A DNA stretch of 4,993 nt, taken from IMG/VR virus record IMGVR_UViG_2548876855_000014, one strand, 5' to 3'. The stretch comes from a virus (taxonomy: Duplodnaviria; Heunggongvirae; Uroviricota; Caudoviricetes). Made by a program: the position numbers. Shown in pieces: positions 1 through 4,993 of the stretch. Numbering within the stretch: position 1 is the first letter of the stretch; each line of letters opens with the position of its first letter.

Positions 1-3000
1 TGTGGTGATGAAAAAATCCACAGCAGGTATCAGTATCAGCTGAATTTTATAACCCAGAACGGGCGTCAGAAATGACGCCTTTTTTATTGCAGAAAAGCGA
101 GAGGTAATTATGCGTAAACTTTATGCCGCCATTTTGTCCGCAGCCATTTGTCTGGCCGTATCCGGTGCGCCTGCATGGGCATCTGAACATCAGTCCACGC
201 TGAGCGCGGGGTATCTTCATGCCCGGACCAACGTTCCCGGCAGTGATGATCTGAACGGGATTAACGTGAAATACCGTTATGAGTTTACGGATACGCTGGG
301 GCTGGTGACGTCATTCAGCTATGCAGGAGACAGGAATCGCCAGCTTACCCGTTACAGCGATACCCGCTGGCATGAAGATTCCGTGCGTAACCGCTGGTTC
401 AGCGTAATGGCGGGGCCGTCTGTGCGCGTGAATGAATGGTTCAGCGCGTATGCGATGGCGGGTATGGCTTACAGCCGTGTTTCGACTTTTTCCGGGGATT
501 ACCTTCGCGTAACTGACAACAAGGGGAAAACGCACGATGTGCTGACCGGAAGTGATGACGGTCGCCACAGCAACACGTCTCTGGCGTGGGGAGCTGGCGT
601 GCAGTTTAACCCGACCGAATCCGTGGCCATTGATATTGCTTATGAAGGTTCTGGCAGTGGTGACTGGCGCACTGACGGGTTCATCGTGGGTGTTGGTTAT
701 AAATTCTGATTAGCCAGGTAACACAGTGTTATGACAGCCCGCCGGTTCAGGCGGGCTTTTTTGTGGGGTGAATATGGCAGTAAAGATTTCAGGTGTACTG
801 AAAGACGGCACAGGAAAACCGGTACAGAACTGCACAATCCAGCTGAAAGCAAAACGTAACAGTACCACGGTGGTGGTGAACACGCTGGCCTCAGAAAATC
901 CGGATGAAGCCGGGCGTTACAGCATGGACGTTGAGTACGGTCAGTACAGCGTTATTCTGTTGGTGGAAGGGTTCCCGCCGTCACATGCCGGGACCATCAC
1001 CGTGTATGAAGATTCTCAACCCGGTACGCTGAATGATTTTCTTGGTGCCATGACTGAGGATGATGTCCGTCCGGAGGCACTGCGCCGTTTTGAGCTGATG
1101 GTGGAAGAGGTGGCGCGTAACGCGTCCGCGGTGGCACAGAACACGGCAGCCGCGAAGAAGTCAGCCAGCGATGCCAGCACATCAGCCCGTGAGGCGGCAA
1201 CCCATGCGACTGATGCTGCGGACTCAGCACGCGCAGCCAGCACGTCAGCCGGACAGGCCGCGTCGTCGGCTCAGTCAGCGTCTTCCAGCGCAGGAACGGC
1301 ATCAACAAAGGCTACTGAAGCATCAAAAAGTGCTGCCGCTGCAGAGTCCTCAAAAAGCGCGGCGGCTACCAGTGCCGGTGCGGCGAAAACGTCAGAAACG
1401 AATGCGGCAGTGTCACAACAATCAGCCGCCACTTCTGCATCCACCGCGACCACGAAAGCGTCAGAAGCTGCCTCCTCAGCCAGGGATGCGTCGGCTTCAA
1501 AAGAGGCGGCAAAATCATCAGAAACGAGCGCAGCCTCGAGCGCCAGTAGTGCAGCCTCCTCGGCAACGGCGGCAGGCAATTCCGCGAAGGCGGCCAAAAC
1601 GTCTGAGACAAACGCTAAGTCCTCTGAAACGGCAGCAGAACAGAGTGCCTCCGCAGCAGCAGGCTCAAAAACAGCGGCTGCATTATCTGCCAGTGCCGCG
1701 TCAACAAGTGCCGGGCAGGCCTCAGCCAGTGCCACCGCCGCCGGAAAATCGGCAGAAAGTGCCGCATCGTCTGCTTCAACAGCCACAACGAAGGCTGGCG
1801 AAGCCACTGAACAGGCCAGCGCAGCAGCGAGTTCTGCTTCCGCAGCGAAGACATCCGAAACGAACGCGAAAGCGTCGGAAACCAGCGCAGAATCCTCAAA
1901 AACGGCTGCCGCATCGTCAGCCAGTTCGGCGGCGTCATCGGCATCATCTGCGTCTGCTTCAAAAGATGAGGCGACCAGACAAGCGTCAGCAGCGAAGAGC
2001 AGCGCCACGACGGCATCCACGAAGGCGACAGAGGCAGCTGGTAGTGCGACGGCAGCAGCTCAGAGCAAAAGTACGGCGGAATCTGCAGCAACGCGCGCTG
2101 AGACAGCGGCAAAACGGGCAGAGGATATTGCATCCGCCGTGGCGCTTGAGGATGCGAGCACGACGAAAAAGGGGATAGTACAGCTCAGCAGTGCGACTAA
2201 CAGCACTTCCGAGTCACTGGCGGCAACGCCAAAAGCCGTTAAGGCCGCGTATGAGCTGGCTAACGGGAAATACACCGCACAGGATGCAACGACAGCACAG
2301 AAAGGGATAGTTCAGCTTAGCAACGCGACCAACAGCACATCTGAAATGCTGGCGGCAACGCCAAAGTCGGTAAAGGCAGCCTATGACCTTGCTAACGGGA
2401 AATATACTGCTCAGGACGCTACGACAGCACAAAAAGGAATTGTCCAGCTCAGTAGTGCAACCAACAGCGCATCTGAAACGCTTGCCGCGACACCGAAAGC
2501 AGTGAAAGCAGCTAATGATAATGCGAATGGTCGGGTACCTTCTGCCCGTAAGGTGAATGGTAAGGCGCTTTCATCGGATATAACACTGACGCCGAAAGAT
2601 ATTGGTACGCTTAACTCAACAACAATGTCATTCAGCGGTGGTGCTGGTTGGTTCAAATTAGCAACGGTAACCATGCCACAGGCGAGTTCTGTTGTTTCAA
2701 TTACGTTGATTGGTGGCGCGGGATTTAACGTGGGGTCACCTCAACAGGCAGGTATATCTGAACTTGTTTTGCGTGCAGGTAATGGTAATCCGAAGGGGAT
2801 TACTGGTGCTTTATGGCAGCGCACATCGACAGGGTTTACAAATTTTGCCTGGGTCAATACATCTGGTGATACTTACGATATTTACGTTGCAATCGGAAAT
2901 TATGCGACTGGTGTAAATATTCAATGGGATTATACCAGTAATGCCAGCGTGACGATTCATACGTCACCAGCATATTCTGCTAATAAGCCGGAAGGGTTAA

Positions 3001-4993
3001 CGGACGGTACAGTTTATTCACTCTATACGCCATCAGAGCAGTTTTATCCGCCTGGCGCACCAATCCCGTGGCCATCAGATACCGTTCCGTCTGGCTATGC
3101 CCTGATGCAGGGGCAGACTTTTGACAAATCTGCATACCCGAAACTTGCAGCCGCTTATCCGTCAGGCGTGATCCCTGATATGCGTGGCTGGACGATTAAG
3201 GGCAAACCTGCCAGTGGTCGGGCCGTATTGTCTCAGGAACAGGACGGCATTAAATCGCACACCCACAGCGCCAGCGCATCCAGTACGGATTTGGGGACGA
3301 AAACCACATCGTCGTTTGATTACGGCACTAAATCCACGAATAACACCGGGGCGCACACGCACAGTGTGAGCGGTACAGCCGCAAGTGCCGGAAACCATAC
3401 TCATAGTGTCACAGGCGCATCAGCAGTCAGCCAGTGGTCACAAAATGGGTCAGTACATAAGGTAGTGTCTGCGGCCAGTGTGAATACAAGTGCTGCAGGA
3501 GCGCACACTCATAGTGTCAGCGGCACAGCTGCATCTGCAGGTGCTCACGCACATACTGTCGGTATTGGTGCTCATACGCACTCTGTTGCGATTGGCTCAC
3601 ATGGACACACCATCACCGTTAACGCTGCGGGTAACGCGGAAAACACTGTCAAAAACATCGCATTTAACTACATTGTGAGGCTTGCATAATGGCATTCAGA
3701 ATGAGTGAACAACCACGGACCATAAAAATTTATAATCTGCTGACCGGAACTAATGAATTTATTGGTGAAGGTGACGCATATATTCCGCCTCATACAGGTC
3801 TGCCAGCAAACAGTACCTATATTGCACCGCCAGATATTCCGGCTGGCTTCGTGGCTGTTTTCAACAGTGATGAGGCATCGTGGCATCTCGTTGAAGATCA
3901 TCGGGGTAAAACGGTTTATGACGTGGCTTCCGGCGACGCGTTATTTATTTCTGAACTCGGCTCATTACCGGAAAATGTTACCTGGTTATCGCCGGAAGGG
4001 GAGTTTCAGAAGTGGAACGGCACAGCCTGGGTGAAAGATGCAGAAGCAGAAAAACTGTTCCGGATCCGGGAGGCGGAAGAAACAAAAAACAGCCTGATGC
4101 AGGTAGCCAGTGAGCATATTGCGCCACTTCAGGATGCTGTAGATCTGGAAATCGCAACGGAGGAAGAAACCTCATTGCTGGAAGCCTGGAAAAAGTATCG
4201 GGTGTTGCTGAACCGTGTTGATACATCAACTGCACCTGATATTGAGTGGCCTGTAATACCTGAAGTTTAAAATAAAAGCCCGCTTAAAATATCGCGGGCT
4301 TCGAAATATAAATGTATTTTCAGAGGCTAGAGCTTAGGATATCTCAGCGGCAATTAACTTATGAGGGATAGCTAAATACCAGAAGATAATTAGTTTTTAC
4401 TATTTATCTTTGTTTGTGGTTCTCCTTCAGCAAGCTCAGCGCCAGTGACAGGATTGATGTCTTCATGGGATTTCAACCTTGTTGCCATAGCTTTTATCAT
4501 AGCTTCTTGCTTGGTCGAAAGATTTATCGAGGCCTTCCCATCCCCACCGTCAACCGCTGAAACTGGATCGGAAACATAGTCAAAGTTTTCATCACTGTTC
4601 CAACTACCTCTGACGTCTTCACCTTCTGACATGTTGTAATATACGTTTTTGTATTTCTCAAGTGGTGGTAATTTTCCTGGTGGAAAGGTGTTACGAATTG
4701 AATGTAATGCTTTTTCAAATGAAAGCATGTGTGCTGCTTCCCGGGTCATTAAAAATGCCAGAGTGTCTTTTACTCCAGGATCATCAGTAACATTAATGAG
4801 ACGTTCGTAAATGATCTTTGCCCGAGCTTCAGCTGCAATATTTGAACGAAGATCGGCCGTGACTTCGCCAATAGTATCAACATAAGCTGCAGTCCAGGGT
4901 ACTCCAGCTGAATTAGTTAATGCTGGGCCTCCTCCGTAGTGAACCGCCCCGGAAATCCTGGAGACTAAACTCCCTGAGAAAGAGGTAAACAGG

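Follow-up and report, generated by a model that had tools for sequence, protein, structure and literature searches.

The side tail fibre protein of phage Ur-lambda, Stf, forms a trimer; each virion carries four such fibres, which speed up adsorption, and the N-terminal domains of Stf build a 12-chain collar at the gpV-gpM junction (PMC12617516). Both lambda Stf and gp37 of phage T4 bind OmpC (PMC12617516), and the side fibres of Ur-lambda also aid crossing of the unmodified O16 antigen (PMC11990801). The receptor-binding tips of these two proteins represent one family, in which a divergent segment that sets specificity is bordered by conserved flanks, and the gene for a gp38/Tfa chaperone follows directly downstream (PMC9659904); the HxH (His-x-His) motifs of this family, seven in T4 gp37, coordinate iron in the needle (Magaziner and Salmond 2022, PMC9659904). 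The horizontal transfer of stf among unrelated phages of the lambda, T4, P2, P1 and Mu types has been called a "well documented case" (PMC3945230). In the present study we analysed an stf gene found in a 4,993-nt stretch of viral DNA (IMG/VR record IMGVR_UViG_2548876855_000014; the whole stretch is referred to below as the window). All coordinates are those of the window, and the features lie on its plus strand unless stated otherwise.

The gene (774..3689; 971 aa) is very probably the intact stf of a lambda-like prophage of Escherichia coli O157:H7, encoding a homotrimeric side fibre and composed as a recombination mosaic. A six-frame listing of open reading frames (ORFs) gave a frame of 973 codons starting with GTG at position 768; the ATG at position 774, which is also the start used by the RefSeq annotation of strain EC4115, yields a product of 971 aa, and the frame ends at 3689. 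The original prediction, made from the sequence alone, described this frame as uninterrupted, and indeed both its coordinates and its length equal those of the RefSeq annotation. Across all 971 aa there is not a single amino-acid difference from WP_000279120.1 of EC4115, a protein known from O157:H7 strains (e.g. EC4115 and ERL04-3476), in which the flanking genes are also the same. Its database name is generic ("prophage tail fiber N-terminal domain-containing protein") and no module description is attached to it. The window as a whole shows 99.9% identity to O157:H7 chromosomes. According to the annotation of EC4115 and ERL04-3476, a complete lambdoid tail module (from the capsid gene through the tape-measure gene to J) is located upstream, followed by lom, stf and tfa; the order J-lom-stf-tfa matches that of lambda.

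The lambda record present in the phage collection carries the frameshift of laboratory lambda PaPa, as a result of which its stf is divided into two ORFs (401 and 314 aa). We therefore reconstructed the 774-aa Stf of Ur-lambda (UniProt P03764) by restoring one base and joining both frames at the shift. The frameshift of PaPa and the shorter Stf of Ur-lambda, both mentioned in the original prediction, were thereby confirmed. The two genes share their position (after J-lom and before tfa), and their products have in common the N-terminal domain, a heptad coiled coil, the Phage_fiber_2 repeat, the collar, the HxH tip and the Tfa chaperone. Nevertheless, the proteins are not collinear: they can be aligned only over aa 1-352 (with lambda 1-352; 80% identity, 0 gaps) and aa 758-971 (with lambda 530-774; 69% identity, 31 gap positions). 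No counterpart of lambda 396-529, a region which corresponds to the hinge and distal coiled coil of the Ur-lambda structure (PMC12617516), was found in the window Stf by alignment to Ur-lambda Stf. In place of the lambda hinge and distal coiled coil (aa 394-525) the window protein carries repeats, a linker and a beta-sandwich block; it also contains 15 extra heptads, and three Phage_fiber_2 repeats versus one in lambda. The proposed mosaic interior, built of exchangeable modules as in a host-range determinant, is thus well founded. The statement that the ends match lambda is correct insofar as both ends align, but it understates the C-terminus, since the length of the tip (214 aa with seven HxH motifs, counted from the PIPWPS collar motif) equals that of T4 gp37, as opposed to 245 aa and eight motifs in lambda.

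Comparison with other phages and prophages allowed the junctions of the mosaic to be located. In the 5' module, aa 1-494 are 96.8% identical to StfR of the K-12 Rac prophage and 95.5% identical to Stf of phage 2H10, in both cases without gaps, and aa 1-538 show 95.4% identity to the fibre protein of Salmonella phage SPF_0923. In DNA alignments, the homology shared with stfR and 2H10 stops at nt 2254, and that shared with SPF_0923 at nt 2393. Both positions lie within three tandem 44-aa Phage_fiber_2 repeats (aa 457-588; 2142..2537), which Pfam scored as three PF03406 units (E 1.2e-51), in agreement with the three tandem repeats noticed originally. Tandem Repeats Finder reported a period of 132 nt, 2.6 copies and a score of 412, and three 132-nt copies can be placed in register over nt 2149-2544, the second being 77% and the third 62% identical to the first. 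The number of units varies between relatives (one in lambda, StfR and 2H10, two in SPF_0923, three in the window Stf), which fits unequal or inter-phage recombination inside the repeats.

Homology at the DNA level restarts at nt 3040-3054, i.e. at the start of the collar, and runs to nt 4251-4252, near the end of tfa. This block (nt 3040-4252) is 98.2% identical to SPF_0923 and 97.7% identical to 2H10 and is continuous across both genes, so that the tip and its chaperone move as one unit. The corresponding protein module is 96% identical to SPF_0923 (aa 750-971) and 97.7% identical to 2H10 (aa 753-971). The Rac StfR (b1372, 1120 aa) and the 2H10 Stf (1117 aa) share the tip with the window protein (84.7% and 97.7% identity, respectively), but the roughly 400 aa in their middle (aa 495-899) show no relation to aa 495-752 of the latter; moreover, each possesses a single Phage_fiber_2 repeat and has a pin-type invertase gene after tfa. 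Unlike Rac and 2H10, the window contains neither an invertase gene nor an invertase crossover site; a scan for inverted repeats identified only short ones with 81-87% complementarity.

Engineered lambda Stf chimeras have been fused at lambda aa 393 and 528 (bioRxiv 10.1101/2025.02.28.640725), and the natural breakpoints described above (nt 2254, 2393 and 3040-3054) coincide with these fusion points. The stf gene of the window is therefore a natural example of a viable chimera formed at the joints chosen by engineers, i.e. the repeats and the start of the collar. At the same time it is a textbook mosaic tail fibre gene, since both the exact protein and module shuffling of this kind are already known. 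Module exchange among the fibres of lambda, P1, P2, Mu and T-even phages has been described since around 1990. With its product already in RefSeq, and near-identical or closely related forms in roughly one in four complete E. coli genomes, the gene carries little weight as a discovery; it illustrates the known exchange of fibre modules, and the loose end is the uncurated beta-sandwich domain in its centre.

This central block (aa 614-752; 2613..3029) is joined to the last repeat by a linker (aa 589-613; 2538..2612), which was of low confidence and mostly unstructured in the model; alignment revealed that the same linker, connecting repeat and block, is also present in other E. coli proteins. 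The lower GC content of the block, pointed out previously, was confirmed by two measures. The GC content was 0.42-0.47 over nt 2500-3000, compared with 0.55-0.67 in the shaft, and for the block itself (GC 0.446) the third-position GC was 0.35, compared with 0.49-0.57 in all other segments of stf. The dip could have been merely the end of the Ala-rich shaft, but this was ruled out by the parallel fall in third-position GC; because synonymous sites are also affected, the shift in composition is real and goes beyond amino-acid composition. This suggests that the central block may have come from a lower-GC source.

Pfam gave no match to the central block even at E<=1, and no NCBIfam model was found for it. 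It was matched, however, by PHROG families 3299, 21552 and 6722. Translated searches revealed 86% identity to the P1-like phage JL22 and 35-62% identity to sequences in a T5-like L-shaped fibre, in FelixO1-like fibres and in T2-type gp37. The block is absent from T4 gp37, and only gp37 proteins of the T2 type carry it; in the 1341-aa gp37 of T2 it occupies approximately aa 822-924, and in the 1071-aa Kenya-K18 fibre approximately aa 304-458. A full scan of 1.84 billion cluster representatives identified 173 relatives, in which the block lies anywhere between position 1 and about 1600 of proteins of up to 2682 aa, sometimes twice in one protein. In alignment it behaves as a discrete unit with flanking sequences that differ between proteins. 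The view that this segment is unlike lambda Stf was correct in that it has no counterpart in lambda, but it is not new to the window gene, being a recurrent fibre domain.

The closest of the compared proteins in this region was the S tail fibre of JL22 (1006 aa): a DNA segment that includes the whole block (nt 2600-3332) is 92.4% identical to the JL22 gene, and aa 587-971 of the window protein are collinear with it (77% identity). In contrast, the N-terminal half of the JL22 fibre is unrelated, its variable head is only 28% identical and it has six HxH motifs. JL22 is a myovirus, and its fibre gene adjoins an invertible segment with a cin invertase.

The AlphaFold2 model of the central block, computed from a 25-sequence alignment, contained ten beta strands with a mean pLDDT (predicted local distance difference test) of 74.9, rising to 82-94 in the core, and predicted a jelly-roll beta-sandwich. 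Matches to this model in a viral structure library comprised tail fibres, gp37 proteins and exopolysaccharide (EPS) depolymerases. One depolymerase, WceF, possesses a jelly-roll sandwich of eight strands that follows its beta-helix, at aa 531-667 (PMC7949094), and this domain is the likely counterpart of the central block by fold, with the proviso that the library matches came without aligned ranges. We interpret the block as a globular knob within the distal part of the shaft. Since the domain recurs in lambdoid, P1-like, T2-type, T5-like and FelixO1-like fibres without a curated family, a Pfam-type model of it would be worthwhile and would improve the annotation of fibre proteins.

The tip of the protein begins with the collar domain (aa 758-812; 3045..3209), recognised by Pfam as Collar (PF07484, E 6.6e-12, profile at aa 761-808). 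It marks the 3' breakpoint, and homology to lambda, StfR, 2H10, SPF_0923 and T4 gp37 restarts here. The collar is followed by a needle of the T4 gp37 type (aa 813-971; 3210..3686). Residues 744-971 matched the structure of the T4 gp37 tip (2xgf, E 2.5e-88) over chain positions 15-242, corresponding to the last 228 aa of gp37. The needle contains seven HxH motifs (aa 829, 861, 875, 911, 925, 934 and 943), each aligned with a motif of T4. Pfam additionally detected the HxH "Phage_fiber" repeat, the set of families in Stf being PF08400, three copies of PF03406, PF07484 and PF03335. Within the needle lies a variable head (aa 865-910; 3366..3503), whose identity is low to T4 (26%), lambda (33%) and StfR (46%) but reaches 100% in both 2H10 and SPF_0923; by comparison, identity to T4 and lambda in the segments flanking the head is 77-92%. 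Lambda has a tip that is 31 aa longer.

Directly downstream, and overlapping the stop codon of stf, is tfa (3689..4270), which encodes a tail fibre assembly chaperone (Pfam Caudo_TAP, E 3.4e-45). A search of NCBIfam gave no family for either Stf or Tfa. The length of the tip, the collar, the seven HxH motifs and a homologous downstream chaperone gene are all shared with T4 gp37, although only the last 226-228 aa of that protein are related and its remainder has no match to the window Stf. Homology, collar, HxH motifs, divergent head and chaperone gene together place the predicted tip in the T4 gp37/lambda Stf tip family, and by analogy its HxH motifs may bind metal. The head, however, is so different from that of T4 that the receptor need not be the same.

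At the opposite end, the N-terminal tail-attachment domain (aa 1-134; 774..1175) matched the full profile of Pfam phage_tail_N (PF08400, E 4.4e-72), and aa 1-94 matched the resolved N-terminus of Ur-lambda Stf (9e7m, E 4e-52). It is followed by a shaft rich in Ala, Ser and Thr (aa 115-456; 1116..2141), for which composition, periodicity and AlphaFold2 modelling indicate an alpha-helical coiled coil of about 49 heptads; the homologous region of lambda (102-393) has been termed the proximal coiled coil (PMC12617516). The three residues constitute 74% of the segment, which contains no proline. Its autocorrelation peaks solely at multiples of 7 (lags 7, 21, 28 ... 119), and the fast Fourier transform gave peaks at 3.49 and 6.98 residues, a periodicity characteristic of a heptad coiled coil without interruptions. 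The single-sequence AlphaFold2 model of aa 96-479 was nearly all helix, mostly with pLDDT of 70-90, and its two low-confidence breaks are points where the lone chain doubles back on itself.

Compared with lambda, the shaft contains an extra segment, located approximately at 1682..1986 from the change in blastn offset. The offsets to lambda on either side differ by 315 nt (105 aa), which is exactly 15 heptads. The extra segment shares 45-56% identity with other shaft regions and is also found in K-12 StfR, 2H10 and SPF_0923. Assuming about 0.15 nm per residue, it would add approximately 15 nm to a shaft of roughly 35 nm, giving a total of about 50 nm. The strict register over about 49 heptads, taken together with the 15-heptad difference from lambda, suggests that insertions and deletions in this sequence may be tolerated only as whole heptads. 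The original prediction was right that the shaft is rich in Ala, Ser and Thr, that it is longer than that of lambda and that its length is distinct from lambda's (by 105 aa). Its expansion, however, is not special: because StfR, 2H10 and SPF_0923 have shafts of the same length, this is the common form in E. coli prophages and lambda is the short variant. Two alternative-frame ORFs within the shaft, 1171-2178 on the plus strand (335 aa) and 1271-2020 on the minus strand (249 aa), were rejected as overlapping genes. Their translations are low-complexity sequences, either Arg/Pro/Gln-rich or Ala/Asp-rich, and both ORFs are a by-product of the GCN/TCN/ACN codon composition of the shaft, which is poor in stops.

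The claim that the gene is unusually long did not survive the comparison with relatives: StfR has 1120 aa, the 2H10 Stf 1117 aa, the SPF_0923 fibre 1008 aa and the fibre of JL22 1006 aa. These lengths were taken from annotated complete records, as homologue searches, one using the central block and one the N-terminal domain, yielded almost exclusively short partial fragments at contig ends. Among E. coli matches that were sampled across the entire ranking and cover positions 1 to 2916 of the query, the spans in the records were 2916-3531 nt, the window stf being the shortest; one full-length place was stretched to 4229 nt by an insertion of IS1203. Thus, the length and the shaft of this fibre are unusual only in relation to lambda, which is a short outlier.

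These modules are consistent with the following picture of the fibre. By homology with Ur-lambda Stf and T4 gp37, the protein would form a homotrimer, docked on the tail tip through aa 1-94. The coiled coil of about 49 heptads (aa 115-456; approximately 50 nm) would then lead through the three 44-aa repeats (aa 457-588) to the presumed jelly-roll knob (aa 614-752) and finally to the tip (aa 758-971), in which the needle behind the collar is probably held by the seven HxH sites and the head (aa 865-910) would contact the receptor. Tfa, encoded downstream, would serve as the folding chaperone for the tip. Such a fibre would accelerate the initial, reversible contact with the cell surface that precedes binding of the terminal receptor by the J protein. 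The mosaic itself probably arose through recombination at joints that are conserved, the Phage_fiber_2 repeats and the beginning of the collar, with a 5' part of 1.5 kb of the Rac stfR type, a central block common to a P1-like phage, and a tip with tfa common to 2H10 and SPF_0923.

Some observations weigh against this interpretation. That the prophage can be induced and the fibre expressed and assembled is a supposition, and because of the divergent head the receptor cannot be read from it. The structural predictions were made for monomers, while the real object would be a trimer, so the fold of the block (pLDDT 74.9) and the helical shaft are supportive only. In addition, a promoter scan of the window found no sigma-70-like site, an outcome that is expected if stf is transcribed from the phage late promoter but gives no positive sign of expression. 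These points leave room for an intact but functionless relic: the prophage might be defective and the fibre never made, the frame having survived only owing to the young age of the O157:H7 clone. Downstream of tfa the sequence is indeed rearranged, with cargo genes, a tfa remnant and insertion sequence (IS) elements, and laboratory lambda manages without side fibres (PMC3945230, PMC12617516). On the other hand, a frame of 971 codons with a repetitive, indel-prone shaft has stayed intact and is identical in independent complete genomes, the upstream set of tail genes is complete and tfa is intact. Furthermore, genome records of two lambdoid phages, 2H10 and SPF_0923, contain the same tip and shaft, and a copy from an O103:H2 strain, 97.4% identical across the entire stf, is annotated as one tail fibre gene, as are the O157 copies. 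We consider the relic unlikely, and a functional side fibre gene is the interpretation that we prefer.

A misassembly, in which reads from different prophages were joined, deserves mention because tail fibre genes are repeated within O157 genomes: at least part of stf was matched in 5112 of the 5426 complete E. coli genomes, at up to 17 places in one genome, and incomplete stf fragments from contig ends abound in protein databases. Yet the same 4.9-kb arrangement is present with 99.9% identity in dozens of independently finished genomes, and each of its junctions recurs in other proteins and phages, which makes the probability of an artefact negligible. The remaining alternative concerns the role of the central block rather than the origin of the gene. 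The block may possibly take part in binding; as an accessory lectin-like knob it would bind a surface glycan independently of the tip and confer dual specificity on the fibre, with the tip recognising a porin or the lipopolysaccharide core. We regard this dual specificity as rather improbable.

The gene is widespread in E. coli. At a threshold of at least 80% present, stf alone was detected in 1270 of the 5426 complete genomes and the whole window in 1067. An exact-sequence look-up of the 971-aa protein in a collection of 15 billion proteins gave no match, a result that is uninformative because the same protein is WP_000279120.1 in RefSeq genomes.

Upstream of stf, the window contains lom (110..709), coding for an outer-membrane beta-barrel protein of the Ail/Lom type (Pfam Ail_Lom, E 7e-120; WP_001230336.1 in EC4115). 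Between its stop codon and the start of stf lies a strong terminator-like GC-rich hairpin (736..757; AGCCCGCC-GGTTCA-GGCGGGCT) with an 8-bp stem that includes seven GC pairs, followed by a T run (TTTTTTG); the surrounding stretch is 86% identical to lambda. In the lysogen this hairpin would insulate stf from the transcription of lom, barring read-through by late antitermination. A second GC hairpin is located directly 3' of tfa (4274-4300).

Homology to other phages ends near nt 4252, still within tfa but close to its 3' end. On the minus strand past tfa there are a manganese catalase family gene, two ferritin-like genes, a general stress protein gene and a methyltransferase gene; the six-frame listing placed the 3' part of one minus-strand gene within the window, from position 4390. 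Beyond these genes we found a 156-nt remnant of tfa, 88% identical to nt 4097-4228 of the window. This arrangement resembles an insertion of cargo genes at the end of the prophage where tfa lies. The last 54 nt of the window (4940-4993) represent the left end of IS1203 (IS629-type, IS3 family) and exactly match the sequence just upstream of an IS1203 transposase gene in EC4115. In ERL04-3476, the insertion of IS1203 splits the manganese catalase family gene; most O157 genomes are without it, and their sequence departs from that of the window at nt 4940.

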